IMG/VR virus record: IMGVR_UViG_3300037454_000334
Location: 42,915-106,914 of that record
Strand: one strand, 5' to 3'
From: a virus
Taxonomy: Duplodnaviria; Caudoviricetes
DNA length: 64,000 nucleotides
Shown here: positions 4,674-63,638 of the stretch, piece after piece
Layout of the letters: the number at the start of each line of letters is the position of its first letter
Numbering within the stretch: the stretch's first letter is position 1
Notes under the pieces: generated by a model
Databases searched by the model: none
Seen by the model: the letters and a program-made list of their open reading frames with translations, nothing else
What the model was told of the DNA's origin: nothing
Program-made: the position numbers and the translations under genes

Positions 4674-5228
4674 CTACTTCTCTGCATTAGATGCCTGTGC
4701 AGGCTGAGGAAAAAGTTCCTCGTATGGCTCCCATTCGATAGAATCCTTACGAGCCCATCCGTCAGACAGCGTTTGGTTAATATAGGCAACAGCCTTGATA
4801 TAGAAGTCGTCAGCATCCTCCATTGTCTCAAAAGTATGATACACTGGCAAACCATCCTCTGTTTCACCCATCTTGAATGTAACAGGTAACGTGGCGCCAT
4901 TCTTTTGTACAGCCAGGTCATAGGCTGATTTGAAGTTAAACTGATTCTCAGTAGAGAGCCATACAGGAATAACCTCTTCAGAACCGACAGGCGACCACGT
5001 AAATCCTGAAATAATAATCTCATCAGTCTGCGCATTGATGTCACCAAAAATTGCGTCCTTTACCATCTGCAGCGTCAACTGAGAACACTGTGTCTTGGGA
5101 ATATAGATTTCATACCACTCATACAGGTTCTTTCCTGCAACCTTCTTTAGATCGTAACCGATGACGATGCGCGAATTTTCTTCGCGAACGAGCGAGAAGT
5201 CGCTCTTTTTTCCACTCATTTTGTTCAT
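4674..5228 (-). CDS. phage protein, DUF4376-like (tail-fibre-associated)
   Basis: VWLSTENQFNFKSAYDLA...LPVTFKMG motif recalled from Bacteroidales phages. Confidence 0.6.
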   Translation of the reverse strand: MNKMSGKKSDFSLVREENSRIVIGYDLKKVAGKNLYEWYEIYIPKTQCSQLTLQMVKDAIFGDINAQTDEIIISGFTWSPVGSEEVIPVWLSTENQFNFKSAYDLAVQKNGATLPVTFKMGETEDGLPVYHTFETMEDADDFYIKAVAYINQTLSDGWARKDSIEWEPYEELFPQPAQASNAEK

Positions 5229-6495
5229 AATCCTGTTGTTTTAATAAATTAATAAAATATTGATGTCGTTCTGTAATCTTTGTCATATCCTCACTGAACA
5301 CACCGAGCCGCATAAACTCTGCTCGAAAGAAAAGTTCTCGGCGAAGGCGGAAAGAAGCCGTATGAGAGAATATACCGAGATAGGAGCTGATAGTACGCAG
5401 CATCTTGTCGGCGGTAGTTTTGCCTCCTGCCAGACTGTTTGTTGGACGAGACATTGAAAGCCACTTTGGACGCAGTGACGGATGTGTCAGATAGAAGATG
5501 TTTCTTCTGATGCGCCGCAAAGTGTGATTCGATACATAAGTGCGCCATGGCTTGATAAAAGCACCGAGGAATTCTACACCATGATGTACCTCGCTGACTT
5601 CGAGTTTGCCCATGTGTAGTTCCAAACCAAGTTCCTGAAACAGGAATGATCTGATCCGAGTCACGAGCGACAACAACCACTCCTTGTTGGCACTGATGAC
5701 TACCGAATCGTCTACATAACGTCCGTAGTTCTTGCATTTCAGTACTCGCTTCATAAACTGGTCGAAGATATTGAGATAGACGTTCGAGAAAAGCTGTGAG
5801 GTCAGATTGCCAATTGGAAGCCCGAGCCCGTCCTCTGTCTTCAGCAGGCTCTTGGCAGGATCTAGATCTACCCATCCCTCCAGCGAACCGACAATAACAC
5901 AGTTCTCCTTTGGATTCAACAGTGCAATCTCCGCTGTGAGCCAACATAAAAAGTCGATGTCTAGTCTGTCTGACCATCTCTCGATAGAGTGTCTGCATAT
6001 ACGATGCATAGCCATCTTCCTGAGCGAAGCGGTTGCTATCTCCAACAATTTTTTCCTGACGATGTGCATAAAGTAACCTCGGATATCCAGGTGCATCGCA
6101 TAACAAGGACACTGCCAGTTTCTCGACTCGCGGCGCAACATATCCGTTACCCGATTTATACCATAATGAGTACCGCGTCCAGGCACACAACTGTAGGAGT
6201 CCTGAATAAATGTACGCTCGTAGAGCTCGTGCGTGTAGTTGTAATAAAGGTGATGAACGATGCGGTCGCGAAACATAGCAGCAAATATTTCGCGCTTCTT
6301 CGGATATTCCACAATAAAGCACTTCGATGGCTGAGCCACATAACGACGACTGATGAGGTCGTCGCATAATTGCTCCATGTTCGTCTTTAAGTCGGACTCC
6401 CACTTCACGACATACGACATCATACCCTTGCCACGACGTGCATCGTAGTATGCAGCAAACAAATCGCGCAGAAGTTGTTGCCTTGTAAGCGTCAT
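5119..6495 (-). CDS. DGR reverse transcriptase
   Basis: RT motifs KKREIFAA..RDRIVHH, LDIRGYF, GLPIGNLTSQLFSNVYL (DGR-type SQ), RYVDD; adjacent to the TR. Confidence 0.95.
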   Translation of the reverse strand: MTLTRQQLLRDLFAAYYDARRGKGMMSYVVKWESDLKTNMEQLCDDLISRRYVAQPSKCFIVEYPKKREIFAAMFRDRIVHHLYYNYTHELYERTFIQDSYSCVPGRGTHYGINRVTDMLRRESRNWQCPCYAMHLDIRGYFMHIVRKKLLEIATASLRKMAMHRICRHSIERWSDRLDIDFLCWLTAEIALLNPKENCVIVGSLEGWVDLDPAKSLLKTEDGLGLPIGNLTSQLFSNVYLNIFDQFMKRVLKCKNYGRYVDDSVVISANKEWLLSLVTRIRSFLFQELGLELHMGKLEVSEVHHGVEFLGAFIKPWRTYVSNHTLRRIRRNIFYLTHPSLRPKWLSMSRPTNSLAGGKTTADKMLRTISSYLGIFSHTASFRLRRELFFRAEFMRLGVFSEDMTKITERHQYFINLLKQQDYEQNEWKKERLLARSRRKFAHRHRLRSKEGCRKEPV

Positions 6496-34560: not shown

Positions 34561-35844
34561 TTACTCATTTACCAGCATCGGCATGGCCAGCAGGGTGAGG
34601 GTCGACTTGACGTCCTCCTCCTTGATGAGTGCGGCATGTGACGGGTCGCCAAGCAACAGGTGGAGGTTCTCGGTGGCGACACAGCCGAGCAGACCGGCGA
34701 TGGTCGACATCTTGAAGCCGTAGATCTCACCCTCGGGCAACGTGGTATCTCCGGCATTCTGGATAGAAACGCGCTCGTTGCCGCTACGCGAGAAGTCGTA
34801 GTCGGCAGCGTCAATCCTGAGTTCACTGCCCTGACGCACCATCGTGATCATGCCCGATGACTCACTGGCGAAGAGACCGACACGCTTGATGGCACCAGCC
34901 AGCGCACCGACGTTCATCGTGACAATCTTCTCGTTCTTCTTGGGGATGACACTCTCGTAGTTGGGATAGTTACCCTCCATCAACCGGCTGACGAGCACCA
35001 CACCCTCGCGGCGCCACTCGATGCGCTGGGTGTCGGCGGTGACGTTCACCTGGTCGGCATCGGCGAAGATGTCGCAGATGGTAGGCAGCACGGCCTTCGG
35101 AACAATGAGCTTCGCAGAACCGTCGACGGGGAAGCTATGGTAGCCGAGCCATCCTGCACCCATATCGAACTGACGACGATAGAGCGTATGACCGTCGGAG
35201 GCGACGAGCACCATACGGTCGAGCCATACGTCGAGACACTCGGTATTCATCACCGGACGCAATTCGTCGTTGGCACAGCAGATGCGGGCCTGCTTGATAT
35301 AGGGCATCAGCTGAGGACCACGAACGGTGAAGCTGCAGACGGGCGTAGCGGCAGACATGCCCTGCTCGCCGGACTGTACGCCCTCCATCGTGACGACCTT
35401 CGCCATCGGCGGGAACTCAAGTGCCGCGTCGCAGGGGAAGGTGAACTCACCGATGCCGTAGTCGACACGCATCTGAATCTGCTCGCCACTCGTCTCGAAC
35501 GACACACGGAGCATGTAGCCACCACGGGGCACGGCACTGATAGCCTCCTTCAAACGACGGAAGGGGATGCAGACGGCAGTGAAGCGGTCCTTGCTGTCGT
35601 CCTCATGGATCTGCGCCCAGGGCTGCATGGTCGTCTCATCGTCGACAGTCACGGGGTGGATGCAGTCCATCTTCAGCCACGACTCGGTGTCACTGCCCAT
35701 GAGCCACACCATGTCGCGGTCGTTTTCGTAGCCAATCATGATGTCCTGGATGATCGGCAGTGCCGACTTGCTGGGGATGATGTTTGAAAACTGTCCGAGC
35801 GCCTTCTGGAAGGCCGCCGGCTCAAAAGTAAACATTGCTTTCAT
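34561..35844 (-). CDS. dnaN: DNA polymerase III beta clamp homolog
   Basis: PSKSALPII, ELRPVMN, VASDGHTL, GNYPNYESVIP, LLAMPM. Confidence 0.88.
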   Translation of the reverse strand: MKAMFTFEPAAFQKALGQFSNIIPSKSALPIIQDIMIGYENDRDMVWLMGSDTESWLKMDCIHPVTVDDETTMQPWAQIHEDDSKDRFTAVCIPFRRLKEAISAVPRGGYMLRVSFETSGEQIQMRVDYGIGEFTFPCDAALEFPPMAKVVTMEGVQSGEQGMSAATPVCSFTVRGPQLMPYIKQARICCANDELRPVMNTECLDVWLDRMVLVASDGHTLYRRQFDMGAGWLGYHSFPVDGSAKLIVPKAVLPTICDIFADADQVNVTADTQRIEWRREGVVLVSRLMEGNYPNYESVIPKKNEKIVTMNVGALAGAIKRVGLFASESSGMITMVRQGSELRIDAADYDFSRSGNERVSIQNAGDTTLPEGEIYGFKMSTIAGLLGCVATENLHLLLGDPSHAALIKEEDVKSTLTLLAMPMLVNE

Positions 35845-54023: not shown

Positions 54024-54235
54024 AACTATACTGAATTAAAATTGTTAAACTTAAATTTCCTCAAATATATATTGTTGCTATAAAGCACTGTTTTTTTCTT
54101 CTTAGAAATCAGCGGCACCGTCACGGGAGGCTGATATGATAGATTAATAACTTAAAGATATGTACTTTGTACTTTGTGGCCCGCCGGGGCACCGATCCCC
54201 AGATAGGTCTATAATTCCTGACGGGCCTACCGATA

Positions 54236-54979
54236 TTACTTAAAACCGTACTTATGGGCTATTTCGCCGTTGCCATACCAGGCATCCTCAAAGCTGATAT
54301 TCAGATAGCCCTGATAGATACGGCTGGATCCACGGCGCGCTTTCAGGATGATAGGATTACCGTCTTTGTCCGTTACCTTATTCGGCGCGCCGTTTTCATC
54401 CCAGCACGACCCGTTGGGGCTACCAGCCGTTGCAACCACGGCGCAAAGCATGCCGTCAATAGGTGTACTTTGATAGCCGTTGTAGCCGTTGACAAACGCG
54501 GCGTAGCCGTAGAACGGCGCGCCGTTCAGATAAAGGTGTACCACGGCATCCGACGTGCCGTCGCTGAGCTTTTCTTCAGGTAGTGGCGCCGTTTCATCCC
54601 ACAATCCGTTCCACGGCATTTCTTCTGGGCGCTTGTCGCCACACGTCACGATGTTATGTCGGAACGGCAAAAGCAAATCATTATTGCCAAAGCTGTTAGC
54701 CGTAGAACACAGATAATAGTAACCGTCGCGGCACAGCACGTACACCAGCACGGACACGGTTTTCCTGAATATGGATGCACCAGACCAAATGCCCCACTTC
54801 TTTTCTTGCATTTCATCCTCAGTGCCCCAGTTATCAAACGTCACGACACGGTAAAACTTATTATTCACGTTCAGGATATAGCAAAAGTTATAACCAGGCT
54901 GATTTTTGCCGTTCCTATTTTCGTATCTTACAACGTCTTTGCTTTTGCTCAGATCCGTTATTTCAAAATTCTTCTTCAT
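54236..54979 (-). CDS. hypothetical early protein
   Basis: 247-aa ORF with AT-rich leader. Confidence 0.65.
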   Translation of the reverse strand: MKKNFEITDLSKSKDVVRYENRNGKNQPGYNFCYILNVNNKFYRVVTFDNWGTEDEMQEKKWGIWSGASIFRKTVSVLVYVLCRDGYYYLCSTANSFGNNDLLLPFRHNIVTCGDKRPEEMPWNGLWDETAPLPEEKLSDGTSDAVVHLYLNGAPFYGYAAFVNGYNGYQSTPIDGMLCAVVATAGSPNGSCWDENGAPNKVTDKDGNPIILKARRGSSRIYQGYLNISFEDAWYGNGEIAHKYGFK

Positions 54980-55037
54980 AATCGTAAATGCTTTATTCGT
55001 TAATTCCCTAATTCTAATTTCTCACTATAACGTATAG

Positions 55038-55508
55038 TTACTTTCTGTTTCCAGCCACGTCGCCGTATGTCTTAAACAGCTCATAACTGTTATCCGTTGG
55101 TGACGTTAGGTAACATACCACGGCGTAGCCCTGGGCCACGTATGCTGCAGCAGCCGTGTCGGCATCCTCAGCCGTTAGGTAGTGTTCCTTATCCCAGCTT
55201 TTCTTATCTTTCCAAAGGATGAAATGATAGCGCCCGTATTGCCACTTTCCGTCGCGGAATATAAAGCGCTTGTCGCGCTTGTCAATCCACTTATAGGCGC
55301 TTTTGATACAATCATCCAGCGTGCAGCCGTATTGGCTGTTATACGTGCCGTCGTAGCCGACGGCGTAGCTTTCGCGGAAATTCTTATCGTAGATGAAGAT
55401 GCAGAAATCGCCCTGATCGGTTTTCTTGTCGCGGAAACGTACTGATAGCCCGTGTTCCTTTGCGTATGCTTTCAGCGCGTCGATACTGATAACTATATTC
55501 GTTTTCAT
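55038..55508 (-). CDS. hypothetical early protein
   Basis: 156 aa; conserved leader repeat upstream. Confidence 0.65.
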   Translation of the reverse strand: MKTNIVISIDALKAYAKEHGLSVRFRDKKTDQGDFCIFIYDKNFRESYAVGYDGTYNSQYGCTLDDCIKSAYKWIDKRDKRFIFRDGKWQYGRYHFILWKDKKSWDKEHYLTAEDADTAAAAYVAQGYAVVCYLTSPTDNSYELFKTYGDVAGNRK

Positions 55509-55575
55509 AATTCCTCAATTTTAAAATGTTTCTATAAAGTGTTACTTTCCTCTTTGTTGGGGCTGGGGCTGAAAG

Positions 55576-55932
55576 TTATGCAGCCCAGCGCAATTCCTTT
55601 AATTGGTTTTCAATCAGCACGGCCAAACGTTTTTCTTCATCCGTGAAATAGCTCAGCCAATCCAGACGCGTTTCCCAATCCACAATACCGGTCAATTTGT
55701 CCGTAAAGCTATCATTTCCACCCAGCATCCTGAACAGTTTTTCAGGATTAACGTTCGCGTGGCTATCAGCCGTCACTATCATAACGGGCACGCCCGAAAA
55801 ATTACCGTGGTTATCGTAATCTTTGCGGCGGGCTATAAACAGCGTGCCGTCGCTGTTACGGTACAATACGTCGTAATTGCTATCAACGCCACAAACACAA
55901 GCGCTGTTTACTTTGATAATCGTTGTTTCCAT
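55576..55932 (-). CDS. hypothetical early protein
   Basis: 118 aa; conserved leader repeat upstream. Confidence 0.65.
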   Translation of the reverse strand: METTIIKVNSACVCGVDSNYDVLYRNSDGTLFIARRKDYDNHGNFSGVPVMIVTADSHANVNPEKLFRMLGGNDSFTDKLTGIVDWETRLDWLSYFTDEEKRLAVLIENQLKELRWAA

Positions 55933-55996
55933 AATTCCTCAGTTTTTAATCGTTGCTATAATGTTATTGTTTCCCTATCTTTCCGGGCTGGGGCTG

Positions 55997-56248
55997 TTAG
56001 GCCCAGCGCAAATGTTCGCCCAGATTTGTTTCTTTCAGTACCCACGAAAACCGATCTTGCAGCTGGGCGCGTTCCGTTATCGTGTCGCCGAAATACTGAT
56101 AGTGTGCCACGGCGCGGGCTATCTTCTTATTCTTTGCCATAGCGTATGCAATAGCGTTTGGCGTGTCTATCGTGGTGCCCAGAACGTTTCCACGGGCATC
56201 ATGCAGCGTGCATGTAATTGCAGCGTTAACGCAACCAATTTTCTTCAT
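55997..56248 (-). CDS. hypothetical early protein
   Basis: 83-aa ORF. Confidence 0.6.
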   Translation of the reverse strand: MKKIGCVNAAITCTLHDARGNVLGTTIDTPNAIAYAMAKNKKIARAVAHYQYFGDTITERAQLQDRFSWVLKETNLGEHLRWA

Positions 56249-56309
56249 ATCTATTCAGGATTAAATTGTTAATACTATACTATCTTAATTTCTCAGCACG
56301 TCTATAACG

Positions 56310-56819
56310 TTATTGCTGGGGCTGGGCGTAATAACTTGTGTGACGGCACGGATCCCAGCTATATTCCTGAACGAAATGCACGCTGCATAATCCGTCGCGC
56401 AAACTTTCAATTTTGGCCGTGCATAGAATTCCAGCCGTTCCCGTTATCAATTCGCGGACACGTTTCTTTGCATCCTCAAACGTGGCAAAATACGGCATCC
56501 TGAACACGTCTAACAGTACTTTGCTTTCATATCCCGTCGCGTCGTTATCCACAATCTGAACGGTTAAGAAGAAATTGCTTTTATCCTGGGCATCCTCAGA
56601 AACGCCGATTTCTTGTATCTGATATTCAACAACTGTTTCGCCGTAATGCTGGGCGAAATTGATGAAACACGTGGCGTAATACTTTGCCGTTTCCTCAGTA
56701 CGGAATAGATAGGCCAAATTGATATCTTTTGTTTCGCGGGGCATCCCGGTTGACAAATTTGTATTTTCGTAATATACGGTATTGTTTCCGTCGATACGAT
56801 AAAGAATATACTTTTTCAT
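56310..56819 (-). CDS. hypothetical early protein
   Basis: 169 aa; conserved leader repeat upstream. Confidence 0.65.
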   Translation of the reverse strand: MKKYILYRIDGNNTVYYENTNLSTGMPRETKDINLAYLFRTEETAKYYATCFINFAQHYGETVVEYQIQEIGVSEDAQDKSNFFLTVQIVDNDATGYESKVLLDVFRMPYFATFEDAKKRVRELITGTAGILCTAKIESLRDGLCSVHFVQEYSWDPCRHTSYYAQPQQ

Positions 56820-56860
56820 AATTCCTCAGTTTTAAAATGTTTCTATAATATGTATATGGA

Positions 56861-57178
56861 TTAAAACACGTCGCTAACTTTCAGGCCACACACAAGCTGC
56901 ATGTTAGCAATACGTTCGTTAAGGTATTCCATATTTTCGCCCCAGCTGTTTTCATAATCCAGCATAAGCGCGTTAAGCTCAGTATCATCCGCTAAACAGT
57001 TATCCCGATTGTGGCCGTATTCGCCACGGGCTAACATTTTGACTAAATTCATCCGATCGTCGTCGCCCCAGATATAATAGACCACGGCATCCACGGCATA
57101 CGGATAACGCTGGGCGTCGCCGTTCTTTCTTGTAGCTGCATAAAAATCAGCAGCCGTATTGATATTCTTAATTTTCAT
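56861..57178 (-). CDS. hypothetical early protein
   Basis: 105 aa; conserved leader repeat upstream. Confidence 0.65.
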   Translation of the reverse strand: MKIKNINTAADFYAATRKNGDAQRYPYAVDAVVYYIWGDDDRMNLVKMLARGEYGHNRDNCLADDTELNALMLDYENSWGENMEYLNERIANMQLVCGLKVSDVF

Positions 57179-57236
57179 AATTCCTCAGTTTTTAATCGTT
57201 GCTATAATATATATAAAGGTATATGTGGGCTGGGCG

Positions 57237-57443
57237 TTAATCCAGAATAGTATCAGGCCAAATGCAAGCTATAACGATCCAACGATACCAACGGCCGTTT
57301 TCAAAGTGGTTATCTTTCCAGGCATCCCAAACGCTGCAATCAAAATAGCATTTGTACTGTTTCTTTAATTCAGCACGTTTAGCGGCGGCGGCGGCGCGCG
57401 CGTCGTCTAAATTTTCGTAGTACTTTTCAAAAATCGTTTCCAT
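57237..57443 (-). CDS. hypothetical early protein
   Basis: 68-aa ORF. Confidence 0.55.
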   Translation of the reverse strand: METIFEKYYENLDDARAAAAAKRAELKKQYKCYFDCSVWDAWKDNHFENGRWYRWIVIACIWPDTILD

Positions 57444-57501
57444 AATCTTTAAATTTTAATCTGTTAATACTATATTTCTGTTTCTCTAAATTCCTCAGTT
57501 T

Positions 57502-57873
57502 TCAAACGTTCCTATAATAGACGTTTATTTCCGTTTCCGGGCTGTTATGCAGCACGGCGGCGCGTATTTCATCCAGCAGATCCGCGTCGCTGGGCGTTAA
57601 TACGATATTCGTTATAACAGCGGCGCCCGTGCCCGTGGCTAATTCTATATCTGAATATTGTACCGGGCAAATTTCGTAAATCAGCGGCGCGGCAATTTCT
57701 GTTAATTCATCATCCAGGCATCCAGAATTCAGCCCGTCGACAAAAGTTTTTTGCTGGGCGGCGGCTGTTTCTGTATGAAACGTTTCATCGATCGTAATTT
57801 CAAAGAAATAATACATACTACCACAAACGCGGCGCGTTTCTTTGTCGAAATAGGAAAAATCAACGGTAAACAT
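57502..57873 (-). CDS. acidic hypothetical early protein
   Basis: 123-aa ORF. Confidence 0.6.
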   Translation of the reverse strand: MFTVDFSYFDKETRRVCGSMYYFFEITIDETFHTETAAAQQKTFVDGLNSGCLDDELTEIAAPLIYEICPVQYSDIELATGTGAAVITNIVLTPSDADLLDEIRAAVLHNSPETEINVYYRNV

Positions 57874-57950
57874 AATCTTAATTTTTTAGATAGTCTATAA
57901 CGTGTAATACTGTTTTCTAATTCGCAAAAGCGCTTAATTTCTCAGATAGT

Positions 57951-60900
57951 CTATAACATAAGGATCAGCAGCAGCGCGGCGGGCACGGCGGGGCATCCAG
58001 GAACGGCCACGGATGAAACGGGCACGGCTGGGGCTGGGCTGTTTGCAGCGGGCACACTATCAGCGGGCACACTATCAGCGGGCGCGCCGTTTGTTTCTGT
58101 TTCTTCATCCTCAGCAGCGGGCGCGGCTGTTTCTTCATCCTCAGCAGCGGGCGCGGCATCCTGAACGGCTGGGGCATCCTCAGCGGGCGCGGCTGTTATG
58201 CTATCAGCGGCCACGGATGCAACGGCGGGCACACTATCAGCGGGCGCGGCTGTTTCCAGGAACGGCACACTATCAGCAGCAGCGATAAACGGCACACTAT
58301 CAGCGGGCACACTATCAGCGGGCGCGGGCAAAGATACGGCCACGGCTGGGGCTAAATTATCAGGATTAACACGGCGGGCACGTTTGCGGGCGTTTCTGGG
58401 CTGTTTCTTTGCCACGGCGGGCAAACTATCAGCGGCCACGGCGGGCGCCGTTTCTGGGCTGTTTCTGAGCTCAGCAGCGGGCACACTATCAGCGGGCGCG
58501 GCTGGGGCTGTTTCTTCATCCAAAATAAAAGCGGGCGCGGGCTGGGCATCCTGAACGGCCACGGATGCAATAAAACGCGGCGCGGCTGTTATCAGCAGCA
58601 GCGACAAAAGCGCGGCGGCAAAACTGAAAACACGGCGGGCACGGCGCGAAAATTCAGCGGCTAAATAAAAAGCGGCCACGGCTGGGGCATCCTCAGCGGC
58701 AAACGGCGCGGGCGTTTCTTCATCCAGGAACGGCACACTATCAGCAGCGGGCGCGCCGTTTGTTTCATCCTCAGCAGCGGGCGCGGCTGTTTCCCAAATT
58801 TCCGGCATTATTGCAAAGATCGACGCAAACGGCGCGGGCTGGGCTGTTTCATCCTCAGCGGGCACACTATCAGCAACGGGCAAAGATACGGCCACGGCTG
58901 GGGCTGTTTCTTCATCCTGAACGGCGGCCACGGCTGCAAACAGCGGGCACGTTTGGCGCGGGAATTCAGCGGGCGCGGCGCTGGGGCTGGGCACGGCTAA
59001 AAGATCCTTTGTTTCCCCGGCCACGAATAACGAATTAATTACTATTTCATCCGCTAACAGTTTGGAAAAATAAACGTTTTCCAATTTGCCACACTGATAA
59101 ACGGCATACCAAACAGAAACAGCGGAAACGGGCACGGGCAAAGATACGGCGGGCGCGGCTGTTTCTTCATCCTGAACGGCTGGGGCTGTTTCCAGCTCAG
59201 CAGCGGGCAAAGATACGGCGGGCACGTTTGCGGCTGTTTCTGGGGCATCCTCAGCGGCCACGGGATCAGCAGCGGGCGCGGCATCCTGAACGGGCGCGGC
59301 TAAATTAAATATATCTTTATTCTGAACGGCTAAAATATTTAATACTTTGCCAATTTCGGCGGCTGGGCAAACGTCAAACAAACTTTTCCCGCCGGGCTGA
59401 ATATCCAGCTTATAATAAAACTTTGTTATTAATTTGGCACGTTTGCGGCTGTTTGGATAAATATATAATTCCTTTGTTTTATATCCTTTGTTTGTTGCAT
59501 CCAGAATAATAACAAATAAATTATTATCGTGTTTATGTATCATTATTAAACCGGGCAAAATAGAATTATAAGTATATACATTATTTTGTATTTTCATTTG
59601 CGCGGCCACGGCTGGGGAATAATTTGCAAGATCCTGAACGGCTGGGGAAACGCCCCAGATTTTCAGCCTATCAGCGGGCACGAATTCAGCGGCGGGCGCT
59701 GTTTCTTCTTCATCCTGAACGGCTGGGGCTGTTTCCAGCTCAGCAGCGGCGCGGGCTGTTTCTTCATCCGAAAAAGCGGCGGCAAAAGCGGCGCGCGCTT
59801 TTTCTTCTTCATCCAGATTTAAGTTATTAAAATATTCCGGCATTTCATCCGCAAAAGCGGCGGCGGCATCCTCAAAAGCTGGGCGCGTTTCATCCTCAGC
59901 GGCCACGGCCACGGCTGGGGCTGTTTCTTCTTCATCCTGAACGGCGGGCACGGGCTGGGCATCCTCAGCAGCGGGCGCGGCTGTTAATTCATCCAGGCGG
60001 GCGCGCTGATCCTCAGCAAACAAATTTATATCATTAAATGAAACGGCGGCGCGCGGCAAACTGTTTTCCCAGCTATCAGCAGCGGGCGCGGCTGTTTCTT
60101 CATCCTGAACGGATGCAACGGCGGCGGCGCTGTTTGCGGAATTCAGCGCGGGAAATTTGCAAATATCTAATATTTCCACGTTTGCGGCTGGGCTGTTAAA
60201 AAAGTTATCATGATACGGCGTTTTATCAATTTGCACGGGCATTAAAAGCGCGAAATAATTTGCAGCCGTAAAAATAACGGGCTGTTTCTCAGATATAAGA
60301 TACATTTTATCAGCAGCGGCCACGGCGTCTAAATCTTTGCCGTTAATAGCAATAATAAACGAAAACGGCACGGGCTGGGATAACTTTATTTTTGTTACTT
60401 TTTCCTGATCGGCTGTTTTTGGATCCTTTGCATTTTCCTTATAAGCAATAATTTCAATTTCTGGGGCTACCTTTGCAGCGCGCAAAATTACTACATTATT
60501 AACGGTATTTGAAAATTTTGCAGCGGCTAAAATAGCTTTTTTCAGCGCGTTAAAATCTTTGCCCAGAATTAACGCGGCATCCTCAGAAACGGCGGGCAAA
60601 ACTTTTTCCCAGCTGGGAAACGGGTAACAGTTATAAAGCTGTTTGGAATTCGTGCCGTTTGCGGCTGTTTCATTTCCACGAATTTTTATATTTCCTTTGC
60701 CCGTTTTAAATAACGTTGCATCCAGGCAAAAACGGCGCGTTTTATTTGGATCTAAAAGCGCTGTTAATTCTTCATCCAGATTAATAAACATATCAGGAAC
60801 GGCGGCGGCTGTTAATACGTGGCCGTTTGTTGCAACGACGGCACGGCGCGCGGCATCCACACAAATATATTTGCAGCTATCAGCGGCGGCGCTTTTAGCC

Positions 60901-61268
60901 GGGGCCACGGCGTTAAAAATAGATTTGGAAACGGCGGGCACGTCAAAAGCAACGGCCACGGGCGCGGCATCCGCTTTTCTTATAAACTTTTTACGGCGGG
61001 CGCTGGGAATTCCCCAGGCCGTTTCAATTTCGGCACAAATATAAAAAGCTGATCCAGCGGGAAACGTACATCTGTAGCCGTCGAATTCGACGCTAAAAAT
61101 ATTATCTATTTCATTATTAAAAAAACTATCTTTATAGAAATATTTATTAAGCATGTTTTTACTTAATTCCTTTGCCGTATATTCCCCGGCCGGGCATTTC
61201 GTATTATTAAAAACGTGCTCAGCAGCGGCAAAAATTCCGTTATATATTATAAGATCCTTTGTTTCCAT
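57951..61268 (-). CDS. beta-clamp-like N-terminal region fused to a long Ala/Pro/Asp/Glu low-complexity region (1105 aa)
   Basis: VVATNGHVL, FPSWEKVLP, INGKDL, ALLMPV echo DnaN motifs; the rest is built of AVQDEETAAPA/PADSV repeats. Confidence 0.6.
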   Translation of the reverse strand: METKDLIIYNGIFAAAEHVFNNTKCPAGEYTAKELSKNMLNKYFYKDSFFNNEIDNIFSVEFDGYRCTFPAGSAFYICAEIETAWGIPSARRKKFIRKADAAPVAVAFDVPAVSKSIFNAVAPAKSAAADSCKYICVDAARRAVVATNGHVLTAAAVPDMFINLDEELTALLDPNKTRRFCLDATLFKTGKGNIKIRGNETAANGTNSKQLYNCYPFPSWEKVLPAVSEDAALILGKDFNALKKAILAAAKFSNTVNNVVILRAAKVAPEIEIIAYKENAKDPKTADQEKVTKIKLSQPVPFSFIIAINGKDLDAVAAADKMYLISEKQPVIFTAANYFALLMPVQIDKTPYHDNFFNSPAANVEILDICKFPALNSANSAAAVASVQDEETAAPAADSWENSLPRAAVSFNDINLFAEDQRARLDELTAAPAAEDAQPVPAVQDEEETAPAVAVAAEDETRPAFEDAAAAFADEMPEYFNNLNLDEEEKARAAFAAAFSDEETARAAAELETAPAVQDEEETAPAAEFVPADRLKIWGVSPAVQDLANYSPAVAAQMKIQNNVYTYNSILPGLIMIHKHDNNLFVIILDATNKGYKTKELYIYPNSRKRAKLITKFYYKLDIQPGGKSLFDVCPAAEIGKVLNILAVQNKDIFNLAAPVQDAAPAADPVAAEDAPETAANVPAVSLPAAELETAPAVQDEETAAPAVSLPVPVSAVSVWYAVYQCGKLENVYFSKLLADEIVINSLFVAGETKDLLAVPSPSAAPAEFPRQTCPLFAAVAAVQDEETAPAVAVSLPVADSVPAEDETAQPAPFASIFAIMPEIWETAAPAAEDETNGAPAADSVPFLDEETPAPFAAEDAPAVAAFYLAAEFSRRARRVFSFAAALLSLLLITAAPRFIASVAVQDAQPAPAFILDEETAPAAPADSVPAAELRNSPETAPAVAADSLPAVAKKQPRNARKRARRVNPDNLAPAVAVSLPAPADSVPADSVPFIAAADSVPFLETAAPADSVPAVASVAADSITAAPAEDAPAVQDAAPAAEDEETAAPAAEDEETETNGAPADSVPADSVPAANSPAPAVPVSSVAVPGCPAVPAALLLILML

Positions 61269-61372
61269 ATCTTTATTATTTTAAACTGTTATTAATCTGT
61301 TATTTCTTCATCCTCAGCAGCGGCCACGGCTGGGGCATCCTGAACGGGCCCCAGCTGGGCGCGGGCTGTTTG

Positions 61373-61759
61373 TTATTCGTCGTCGTCGTCGTTTTCTTCT
61401 TCTTCATCCGTTTCTATTTCATCCAATACCGTGTTAATAGCTGATCCCAGCAAATAACAACGAATTGTAACGTCACAATATTCGGCGCCACGTTCCAGGG
61501 CATCCGCGCCGTTGCATCCGAATTCGTTCAGGGCCTCAGATAAAAGATCCATATTGTGACACAAATATTCCTCAGCGCGCCACGTGTTAAAAGTATAGGA
61601 TCCGCTTGCATTTCCAGTGACACTATCAGAAACAAACAAAGTATCATTTAATTCGTTTTCCACGTCGTCACGATTATTTGTCGTAACTTTAATTTCGTTT
61701 TCGTTAATATATTCGCGCACGTCGTCGCAAACAGCCTCAAAATAATTATACTTTTCCAT
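61373..61759 (-). CDS. highly acidic protein, Ocr-like DNA-mimic candidate
   Basis: 35 D/E versus 7 K/R in 128 aa; tail LDEIETDEEEENDDDDE. Confidence 0.6.
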   Translation of the reverse strand: MEKYNYFEAVCDDVREYINENEIKVTTNNRDDVENELNDTLFVSDSVTGNASGSYTFNTWRAEEYLCHNMDLLSEALNEFGCNGADALERGAEYCDVTIRCYLLGSAINTVLDEIETDEEEENDDDDE

Positions 61760-61840
61760 AATTCAAAATTTTTAAATTGTTATTAATCTGTTATTTGTTA
61801 TTTCTTCATCCAGGAACGGCGCGGGCGCCGTCGCTGTTAT

Positions 61841-61987
61841 TCAGGCGTTTTTAATTGAAACGTTTGAAACGTTGCAACCGTTAATAATAAATTCGTTAAT
61901 AATCTGGGCGGGCTGATCCGTAAATATTTCAGCAGTGCCGAAATTTGCGCCCAGGCAAACAGTTAAAAGAAATAATTTCGTTTTCAT
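61841..61987 (-). CDS. 48-aa hypothetical protein
   Basis: Manual translation MKTKLFLLTVCLGANFGTAEIF...; leader similar to neighbours. Confidence 0.4.
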   Translation of the reverse strand: MKTKLFLLTVCLGANFGTAEIFTDQPAQIINEFIINGCNVSNVSIKNA

Positions 61988-62007
61988 ATCTTTATTATAT
62001 TAAATTG

Positions 62008-62238
62008 TTATTTGTTTATTTCTTCATCCCAGATAATTAAAGCGGGAACGGATAACAGCCCGGCGGGCACGGATGCAAGAATAAAAATATGCATATAACC
62101 GGCAAAAGTGCCGTTATGCCACAAAAGTGCTGTTTTAGGTACATTAACGCCCCAGCTGAAAAAAGCGGCGTAAATTCCAACGGCTGCAAAAACTATCAGC
62201 AGCAGCGCGCAAACGGCAAAAAATTTTCTTTTATTCAT
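62008..62238 (-). CDS. small two-TM membrane protein
   Basis: 76 aa with two hydrophobic helices; first gene after the promoter. Confidence 0.6.
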   Translation of the reverse strand: MNKRKFFAVCALLLIVFAAVGIYAAFFSWGVNVPKTALLWHNGTFAGYMHIFILASVPAGLLSVPALIIWDEEINK

Positions 62239-62271
62239 ACCTTATTATTTTAAATTGTTATTAATCTGCTG

Positions 62272-62279
62272 CAAAGATA
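62272..62279 (-). promoter_or_regulatory. Bacteroidetes sigma -7 element (TATCTTTG) of the early leftward operon
   Basis: TAnnTTTG about 35 nt upstream of the 62238 start; no GTCCCA. Confidence 0.6.
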
Positions 62280-62742
62280 GATTATATTTTCCAAATAAAC
62301 GAATAAAATCTATTTTTTGAAACAATAATTAACGTTAAAACCTATCTTTTAACGCTTTTTTGCACGAAATAATCTATTTTTCATGAAAAAGCGAAAAATA
62401 AAATCTATTATTTGGCAAACGGCGGGCACGTTTGCCACGGCTGTAAATTGTTTCCCTATTATATATAAAAGGTATGCAAACGGCGCGGCTGTTTCTTCAT
62501 CCTGAACGGCTGGGGCTGTTTCATGAAACGCCACGGATGAAACAGCGGGCACGAATTTAGGAACGGCCACGGGCACGGCTGGGGCTGGGCTGGGATCCCC
62601 AGCGGGCACCCGGCACGGGCATATTGATACTAAGCACAGCAACCGACGCACGCCAGGCGAGGTCAGTGTGGCGGCGCTGGCCTTTGGCATATTGCCTCGC
62701 ATTTCTCAGATTTTGGCCTCGGAAAAATGACCATACACGGGC

Positions 62743-62785
62743 TGTAACTTGCTTATATACACTATGTGAATATCAGCAAGTTACA
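62743..62785. repeat. 43-bp near-perfect palindrome
   Basis: TGTAACTTGCTTATATACAC-TAT-GTGAATATCAGCAAGTTACA; 20-bp arms, 2 mismatches. Confidence 0.85.
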
Positions 62786-63127
62786 ATATGGGCACCGGAG
62801 GGTGTCTCTCGGCTCAAATATCGACATTAGTTAAAATATAGCAATTATTTATTTATTTTCATAGGGTATCGCTGAGTGATTTGTTAATTCATTAACATTG
62901 CATTTTAACAGATGCTTTTCAGCATCTTGCCAATGCCAGCTCAACCTTGAAAATAGATCAAGTCATTTCAAATCGTCTGATTTTAGTGAAAAGATAGGAT
63001 ATTTTCTGCGAAAAGCCAATAATTTTGGCTAAAATAGGTTAAAATAACCAATTTTTGTGCTTTTTTCTTGCATTTTCGACAAAATAAACCTACTTTTGCA
63101 TCATAAAATCTATTTAATTGAGAAAAT

Positions 63128-63496
63128 ATGGATATTTTATCAGTCATAAGAAGTCACGGTCATACGACCTACACACTCGCTAAAGAGATGGGTATTAAGC
63201 AGTCATCGCTCAGCAACATCCTGAACGGCAATCCTACTATCAAGACCTTGCGCCAGGTTGCTGAGAAGATTCCCTGCTCAGTCGTTGAATTCTTTATCGA
63301 CGAGTTGCCAGAGGACTTCAATTTGTCGGCTTTCCGTCCGTCATCCGGTGCAGATGCAACCGACAATCAGCCTCAGATGGAGTCAGACGTCGCCCCGGGC
63401 GTGTTCGTCTGTCCTCACTGCGGCGCAGGCGTGTCATTCAATACATTTGTAGTTAAAGAACCAACGGATAAGGAGGTAACTCATGAGCAAGTCTAG
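63128..63496 (+). CDS. XRE-family HTH regulator with CPHCG motif
   Basis: TLAKEMGIKQSSLSNILNGNPTIKTLRQVA. Confidence 0.88.
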   Translation: MDILSVIRSHGHTTYTLAKEMGIKQSSLSNILNGNPTIKTLRQVAEKIPCSVVEFFIDELPEDFNLSAFRPSSGADATDNQPQMESDVAPGVFVCPHCGAGVSFNTFVVKEPTDKEVTHEQV

Positions 63497-63638
63497 ACGA
63501 TATATGATATGTGGCGGCGTGTGCCTGGCGATGGCCGGGAGTATTGCGATTCTCGGCATCGCTGGGCCTTTGGTCGTGTCGCTCGTGCTCGAATTGCTCG
63601 CAAAGCATTACGAAAAGAAACGATTAAAGACGGTATGA
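63483..63638 (+). CDS. 51-aa membrane peptide
   Basis: Manual translation MSKSRRYMICGGVCLAMAGSIAILGIAGPLVV...; overlaps both neighbours. Confidence 0.45.
   Translation: MSKSRRYMICGGVCLAMAGSIAILGIAGPLVVSLVLELLAKHYEKKRLKTV

Follow-up and report, generated by a model that had tools for sequence, protein, structure and literature searches.

The DNA analysed here is a stretch of 64,000 nucleotides (hereafter the window) corresponding to bases 42915–106914 of the 106.9-kb IMG/VR virus record IMGVR_UViG_3300037454_000334, and all coordinates given below are window positions. An open reading frame (ORF) of 1105 amino acids, whose product we call P0001, spans positions 57951–61268 on the minus strand and joins a head resembling the DnaN sliding clamp to a long tail encoded largely by a few recurring DNA words. 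We take the ORF to be a real gene, expressed early by a temperate phage or phage-plasmid. Its product is probably a clamp-fold head carried on an acidic, mostly disordered tether with candidate membrane segments, and the peculiar vocabulary of the tail would then stem from duplication and gene conversion of coding cassettes, not from selection for the DNA words as such.

The first-pass annotation of this DNA had noted DnaN-like motifs at the N-terminus of the ORF, and this is borne out by structure prediction, fold comparison and profile alignment. AlphaFold2 models the head with a predicted local distance difference test (pLDDT) score of 93, the model staying confident (about 90) up to residue 370, and a Foldseek search with it retrieved sliding clamps only (E 1e-13). 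Like DnaN, the head comprises three tandem clamp domains in one chain: VIA-align superposes residues 97–347 on DnaN domains II and III with a Z score of 19.4 (222 amino acids, root-mean-square deviation (rmsd) 2.8 Å), and looser whole-length alignments pair residues 3–347 with residues 1–366 (255–274 amino acids, rmsd 5–6 Å). Domains II and III fit DnaN closely; domain I is shortened and its fit is loose. A profile built from 44 family sequences matches beta clamps in the PDB (E 1e-8), likewise over domains II and III, and hhalign aligns it with a probability of 98.4% to the window's own ordinary DnaN-like processivity factor, which is encoded separately at 34561–35844. With that protein and with the DnaN structures from E. 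coli (6fvl) and Elizabethkingia (8dt6) the head shares the fold over domains II and III, a YPNW-x-x-V-x-P junction motif and a terminal MP, its C-end reading LLMP and aligning to the DnaN C-terminus. DnaN itself is a head-to-tail homodimer ring around DNA, in which an M-P-M-type C-terminal segment closes a hydrophobic pocket for partners between domains II and III. It differs from them in being basic (isoelectric point 8.6), in its short domain I, and in escaping the curated clamp models (PF00712, PF02767, PF02768 and TIGR00663): P0001 gave no Pfam match at E ≤ 1 and no NCBIfam match at E ≤ 0.01, whereas the other DnaN of the window does match such models. No PHROG or PADLOC domain was found in P0001 either. 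Furthermore, DnaN is typically a stand-alone protein of about 370 amino acids encoded in a replication module, unlike P0001, which is fused to an acidic tail of 750 amino acids with hydrophobic segments and is encoded in an early operon close to the immunity region. Judged by the model and the sequence profiles, the head is a very divergent homologue of the DnaN beta-clamp, and the absence of a clamp fold, which the first-pass annotation had set as a refutation, did not come about.

An exhaustive HMMER search recovered about 99 clusters (at 50% identity) that share the clamp-like domain, all of them metagenomic, and a word-index search yielded 26 long relatives in which the frame is open over tails of about 260–1040 amino acids. 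The long members examined also possess a tail, some distant members are stand-alone clamp-like proteins, and in one relative a MutS-I DNA-binding domain immediately follows the head. Megablast and tblastn searches of deposited phages and PLSDB plasmids gave no match, and a search for related loci in genome contigs and viral contigs found no relative. Relatives adjoin genes for LPD1/LPD5 and ArdC-N/MPTase polyvalent proteins; the family relatives at L015:1-1141 and L009:4892-8920, for example, lie near ArdC-N/MPTase-PolyVal, PcfK and LPD1/LPD5 proteins, whose genes are a hallmark of anti-defence ‘leading’ regions. The tail is interrupted in two relatives. In the distant relative L011 (446-2761) head and tail form one frame split by a single TAG in place of GAG within a repeated word (ADSI-E-TPA), and in L012 a frameshift makes the tail go on in another frame; both may be either errors or tolerated truncations. 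A recurrent programmed stop at the junction of head and tail was considered and rejected, given that the L011 case is a single G-to-T change inside a word and the L012 case a frameshift.

The tail of about 750 residues is acidic (isoelectric point 4.1), with alanine plus proline making up 34%, and in the AlphaFold2 model of residues 700–1105 the pLDDT falls below 50 for 280 of the 406 residues, in agreement with the acidic disordered tail proposed initially. What is confidently modelled is one small beta-beta-alpha-beta module (M2), a helix of 35 residues and a short terminal helix. A fold search with the tail model gave no match at E ≤ 0.001, M2 had no fold match in the PDB, and an ESM Atlas feature search with another module, M1, returned no usable match. 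The family alignment reveals islands in a fixed order, running from the C-x-F-P motif behind the head through variable modules to M2, an aromatic P-[FW]-A-S...P-E-I motif, the helices, a KRKRARR-type basic patch, ADSVP repeats and a hydrophobic end (table 1). The helical island at residues 865–905, with a Kyte–Doolittle 19-residue average of up to 2.0 and a helix in the AlphaFold2 model, is conserved across the family. Since members with heads only 27–34% identical retain these islands with quite different spacer peptides between them, the tail is, as far as such comparisons can tell, translated and constrained. The first-pass annotation had called it filler, a notion that is at odds with the open frame in the 26 relatives, the exclusively in-frame indels described below and the persistence of the peptide islands. 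Within the near clade the tetrapeptide ADS[VIL] recurs, 28 of 75 members having 5–20 copies in each tail against an expectation of about 0.1, which suggests a repeated short peptide motif; the ADSVP(F/A) copies are internal and repeated 9–20 times.

As to the DNA itself, all words lie on the plus strand, i.e. antisense to the gene, as had been noticed at the outset. The word TTCTTCATCC is present in 18 copies with 0 reverse complements (those at 55633, 60768 and 61400 being merely D-E-E codons in other contexts), GGCACACTATCAGC in 9 exact copies, or 11 when one mismatch is allowed (0.02 expected), and CATCCTGAACGG in 14 copies (0.30 expected). This single orientation follows automatically from the repeats being in-frame coding sequence. 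The words keep to 57951–62620 within the 106.9-kb genome; the few exceptions are copies of the shortest sub-words that are due to chance (the TTCTTCATCC copy at 55633 and two 9–10-mers with single reverse-strand copies). The tail had been described as largely assembled from a few words, and this holds for the 64% of its bases that recurring 12-mers cover; the rest is unique sequence encoding the conserved modules. When synonymous codons were permuted 300 times with protein and codon usage held constant, the corresponding coverage was only 24 ± 3% (maximum 31%), and each peptide word is spelled with one fixed series of codons, including different alanine codons at different positions, so the repeats are copies of DNA and not only of peptide. 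Word spacing is irregular. A target of the diversity-generating retroelement (DGR), in which a variable repeat would have a template repeat as its partner close to the reverse transcriptase, was rejected as the nature of these repeats, as the words are absent from the genome outside 57951–62620 despite the DGR-type reverse transcriptase encoded at 5119–6495.

Several further features of the vocabulary are recorded here in their own right. The word GCTGCTGATA is read in two frames, as A-A-D-S in the linkers and as L-L-I in the hydrophobic helix (58554–58625) and at the C-end (57954–57990), and the L-L-I reading also occurs in the 76-residue membrane protein encoded at 62008–62238 (at 62190–62210); a shift of frame in linker words may thus have given rise to the hydrophobic segments. 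Terminator-like sites, consisting of a short GC stem followed by TTTCTTCATCC, number 21 in the interval 57000–63500 against 11 ± 4 expected, a count probably inflated by the repeats, and 17 of the 21 are on the plus strand, antisense to the gene, in linker words. A second, unrelated 14-bp word, CTGACCCCTTTGTG, has four exact plus-strand copies elsewhere (45167, 48363, 49304 and 51028; 0.29 expected), and because these stand at four separate places, word reuse is not unique to the locus.

Comparison with relatives on independent metagenome contigs addresses the question, raised by the first-pass annotation, of whether the frame or only the words persist. The frame and the architecture are kept: the 3′-terminal 900 bp have 85% identity to L007, and each of the 12 indels that separate the two in the colinear part has a length divisible by 3. 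The words are not kept to the same depth, as L008 and L010 use other words and distant relatives retain the architecture with unrelated vocabularies. Codon identity in shared tail words reaches 0.92–0.93 with L007 and L009, whose heads are only 46–49% identical (head codon identity 0.61–0.65), while L006, which has the closest head, shows a tail-word codon identity of just 0.70; head and tail must hence have different histories. The suggestion that the repeats are selected as DNA, as decoy or loading sites, goes beyond their being DNA copies; though possible, it is weakened by the different words and codons of distant relatives and by the hairpins that the non-coding copies form, where a word is paired with its inverted copy.

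We propose that the disordered spacers are made of in-frame cassettes of 15–46 bp, which would have been multiplied, deleted and homogenised through slippage, unequal recombination and gene conversion, with exchange between phages, and that selection would act on the open frame, the composition and the repeated ADS[VIL] peptide, not on the DNA words. This reading fits the DNA copies, the indels in multiples of 3, the mosaic histories of head and tail and the differing vocabularies. In every genome, sequence would also pass between the linkers and both the spacer stem-loops and the tract upstream of the promoter, which are considered below. Among the metagenome proteins, P0119 and P0120 have near-identical tails that differ by one deletion, whose breakpoints fall inside linker words and to which both the aromatic motif and the amphipathic helix are lost.

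The gene belongs to a minus-strand early operon that begins beside a divergent helix-turn-helix (HTH) gene (63128–63496, plus strand), with three small genes (62008–62238, 61844–61987 and 61373–61759) preceding the large ORF and more small genes following it. The identical gene order is seen again in L006, L007 and L008; among relatives the gene preceding the large ORF is swapped and the spacers stay. Other genes of the window encode tail-fibre proteins and an integrase. Neighbours in relatives include HU-HIG and DUF4248 genes, which are typical of Bacteroidota, and the candidate −7 box TATCTTTG of the early promoter fits the Bacteroidota −7 consensus, TAnnTTTG, from which the promoter assignment is inferred; the host is therefore probably a member of Bacteroidota. 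The sequence AATAGATTTTAT has three exact minus-strand copies (62303–62314, 62398–62409 and 63103–63114; 0.16 expected) flanking the interval that separates the early promoter from the HTH gene, where they are candidate operator sites, and a palindrome with 20-nt arms, 90% complementary around a 3-nt gap, lies at 62743–62785 in the gene-free gap upstream of the word-rich tract. The 47-residue product of 61844–61987 (minus strand) has a signal-peptide-like start and a cysteine and is possibly a small lipoprotein; this ORF and the hairpin downstream of it are nearly base-for-base conserved in L007, with 82 nt identical. An Rfam scan of 54–64 kb gave a single match, at chance level.

Table 1. Features of the P0001 gene and of the adjoining early region (window coordinates).
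Feature	Position	Strand	Basis or remarks
DnaN-like three-domain head, residues 1–347	60228–61268	minus	AlphaFold2, Foldseek, VIA, profile, hhalign
Post-clamp motif, residues 365–375, C-x-F-P-x-L type	60144–60176	minus	conserved in family alignment
Module M1, about residues 555–656	59301–59606	minus	AT-rich unique sequence; common to few relatives only (P0004, P0005, P0006)
Module M2, residues 707–759	58992–59150	minus	most widely conserved tail module; predicted beta-beta-alpha-beta, pLDDT about 90
Aromatic motif, residues 813–825, FASIFAIMPEIW type	58794–58832	minus	family alignment
Arg-rich amphipathic helix, then hydrophobic helix, residues 865–905	58554–58676	minus	candidate membrane segment; Kyte–Doolittle, AlphaFold2, alignment
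Basic patch, residues 954–967, KRKRARR type	58368–58409	minus	conserved in alignment
Hydrophobic C-terminal end, residues 1089–1105	57954–58004	minus	candidate tail anchor; Kyte–Doolittle average 2.24; character conserved
GC-rich spacer stem-loop after gene 61373–61759	61303–61372	minus	linker words plus inverted copy
GC-rich spacer stem-loop after 47-residue gene 61844–61987	61800–61843	minus	fold z −2.4; inverted repeat 61811/61825
Candidate early promoter, −7 box TATCTTTG	62272–62279	minus	sequence inspection; within 62250–62279
Leader motif TAACAATTTAA	in 62250–62279; also 62000, 61772, 61281	minus	precedes each of first four genes
Word-rich GC tract	62420–62720	minus	between divergent HTH gene and early promoter; resembles 3′ end of tail gene

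Copies of the words outside the ORF, reported at first pass for 61303–61370, 61800–61830 and 62480–62620, are real. The first two regions are spacers behind small genes and share one layout, in which the stop codon is followed by a GC-rich element, an A-rich run, the leader motif and the next ATG, with a CCGTTCAGGATG-type motif at a fixed place ahead of the leader. The element at 61303–61372 contains a 45-nt match to the ORF (E 2e-6) and an inverted repeat (61329/61348), and its predicted RNA fold has an energy of −32.1 kcal/mol (z −3.1); that at 61800–61843 is part of the 82 nt identical in L007. Eight spacer elements, taken from the window, L006, L007 and L008, were tested, and every one is predicted to form a stem-loop (z −2.0 to −4.4), the stems being a linker word and an inverted copy of the same word, and no GC hairpin of this type exists in the linker regions of the ORF. 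Both spacers of the window can be read in frame past the stop codon as a linker-like peptide ending in DEEI; the relatives L006, L007 and L008 do not keep this reading, so we treat it as a coincidence or a recent event, and stop-codon readthrough of the small upstream genes was rejected for the same reason. An integron-type array of attC sites was also rejected. Such hairpins carry RYYYAAC ... GTTRRRY core sites after each ORF and lie next to IntI; the stems found here read GAAC...GTTC or unrelated words, and the single tyrosine recombinase lies at a distance of 55 kb.

The third region belongs to a word-rich tract lying among the three AATAGATTTTAT copies, upstream of the candidate early promoter. 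A frame of 117 codons (62349–62702) is open there in this genome only and broken in the relatives; in L006, L007 and L008 the tract is word-rich in several frames and has no conserved ORF. The sharing of 11-mers between this upstream DNA and the tails is highest within each genome and strongly biased to the same strand: the L006 tract shares 153 with its own tail (42–117 for the upstream DNA of other loci) and the L008 tract 110 (63–115). Such within-genome sharing implies either that sequence is still being exchanged or that one sequence-specific factor is common to both.

Three observations weigh against the origin of the vocabulary by cassette duplication and gene conversion, or against a general need for the tail. 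The word tract is kept in four lineages without a conserved frame, which neutral gene conversion explains weakly; the codon identity of 0.92 across lineages could reflect a constraint at the DNA level; and tail-less forms may be tolerated, because the tails of L011 and L012 are broken and stand-alone clamp-like members exist. A further, unlikely reading unites linker words and spacer hairpins in one recombination ‘joint’ system, with the words selected for cassette swapping both between genes (in the spacers) and inside the protein (in the linkers); if true, the tail would be a protein-level cassette array, with its own spacers doubling as homology sites. Somewhat less probable still is that the words function as sites in DNA or RNA and can be read as linker by accident, be it protein-binding iterons, Chi-like or recombination ‘joint’ sequences, or sites of RNA processing or regulation. 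A parallel is the lambda origin, which lies within gene O. The presence of words in non-coding DNA of four lineages, the genome-specific and strongly same-strand vocabulary shared between upstream DNA and tail, the fixed position of the CCGTTCAGGATG-type motif ahead of the leader, and the codon identity of 0.92 between lineages with heads 46–49% identical speak for such sites. Yet unrelated words serve the same architecture in distant relatives, the words are irregularly spaced and occur nowhere else in the genome, their orientation bias is an automatic result of the coding frame, and L006 shows no excess of codon identity.

We consider it improbable that the giant ORF was formed by fusion of former small early genes through the GC-rich spacers as ready-made linkers, or conversely that the small genes were split off from it. 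The tail modules are, it is true, sized like small early genes, the window spacers read in frame as linker peptide ending in DEEI, and the gene before the large ORF is swapped among relatives with the spacers staying; but the in-frame reading is lost in L006, L007 and L008, even deeply diverged members have their tail islands in the same order, and no stand-alone homologue of a tail module turned up locally or among 5.8 billion proteins, the seemingly shorter matches being contig-end fragments. BLAST of the neighbouring small proteins against the family tails likewise gave no match. There is very little to recommend an assembly artefact or a decaying pseudogene, in which a collapsed or chimeric repeat would mimic an ORF: short-read assemblies do handle repeats poorly, and the tails of L011 and L012 contain a stop or a frameshift, but the 3.3-kb open frame runs through AT-rich unique modules and more than 26 relatives have open tails. 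Mis-assembly, which the first-pass annotation had named as a danger, was judged from independent assemblies, and those from other samples give colinear tails with in-frame indels only. The notion of filler built from defence-safe words, part of a ‘stealth’ early block avoiding restriction, is hardly tenable either. In the block 54130–62657, TCGA (8 versus about 48 per 8.5 kb in the rest of the genome) and CATG (8 versus about 27) are indeed scarce, but the TCGA count fits the local Markov expectation, CGCG, GCGC, AATT and TTAA are enriched, and 6-bp palindromes number 148, where the rest of the genome would predict 71, a twofold excess that also led us to reject general palindrome avoidance; moreover, the tail encodes conserved peptide islands.

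Our literature search found nothing on a clamp-like head fused to such a tail, and known systems resemble P0001 in part only. Polyvalent proteins (PMC5512222) are similar in being large multi-module products of early or leading regions, in the MutS-I domain of one P0001-family member and in the LPD1/LPD5 and ArdC-N/MPTase neighbours of relatives; Iyer et al. 2017 (PMC5512222) list MutS-I as a domain of Bacteroidetes polyvalent proteins and make no mention of clamp or DnaN domains. However, such proteins contain 2–15 conflict-related globular domains, often with a processing peptidase, whereas in P0001, where neither Pfam nor PHROG nor PADLOC detects any domain, no conflict domain and no processing peptidase is recognised, and its tail is mostly disordered spacer and not a string of globular domains. 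The tail modules and the linkers between them also invite comparison with other cases. Repeat DNA in both coding and non-coding contexts is known from the Rickettsia palindromic elements, which are inserted in frame in genes, and low-complexity linkers from the Gly-rich recombination motifs of T4-type gp38 and the Ala/Pro linkers of pyruvate dehydrogenase E2. The likeness to these three lies in repeats shared by coding and non-coding DNA, low-complexity linkers between small domains, and substrates for module reshuffling; unlike in these systems, the words of P0001 are found within one 5-kb locus, are co-oriented, and form hairpins only in their non-coding copies. Finally, p16.7 of phi29, a membrane-anchored early protein that organises phage DNA, likewise combines a DNA-related domain with a membrane segment, and may serve as a functional analogy only, having no relation to P0001 in sequence or fold.

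With a basic clamp-like head, a long acidic tether, two hydrophobic segments, a place in an early operon, a relative carrying MutS-I and polyvalent neighbours, P0001 can be proposed to be a membrane-tethered clamp-like binder with a role at the start of infection or in maintaining the plasmid-prophage. The head would bind DNA or clamp partners, and the tail would tether it to the membrane. The family adds to the DnaN fold an unannotated and fairly widespread group (some 100 clusters at 50% identity, all from metagenomes) with an undescribed architecture, in which a basic clamp-like head, a very long acidic tether and membrane-type segments are encoded in the operon that comes first after the immunity switch. 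Should the head indeed load on DNA or capture clamp partners, a phage would have a new means of anchoring DNA or of taking over the replication hub. The locus further offers a clean natural example of how disordered linkers evolve when DNA words are cut and pasted, with the words leaking into adjacent regulatory DNA.

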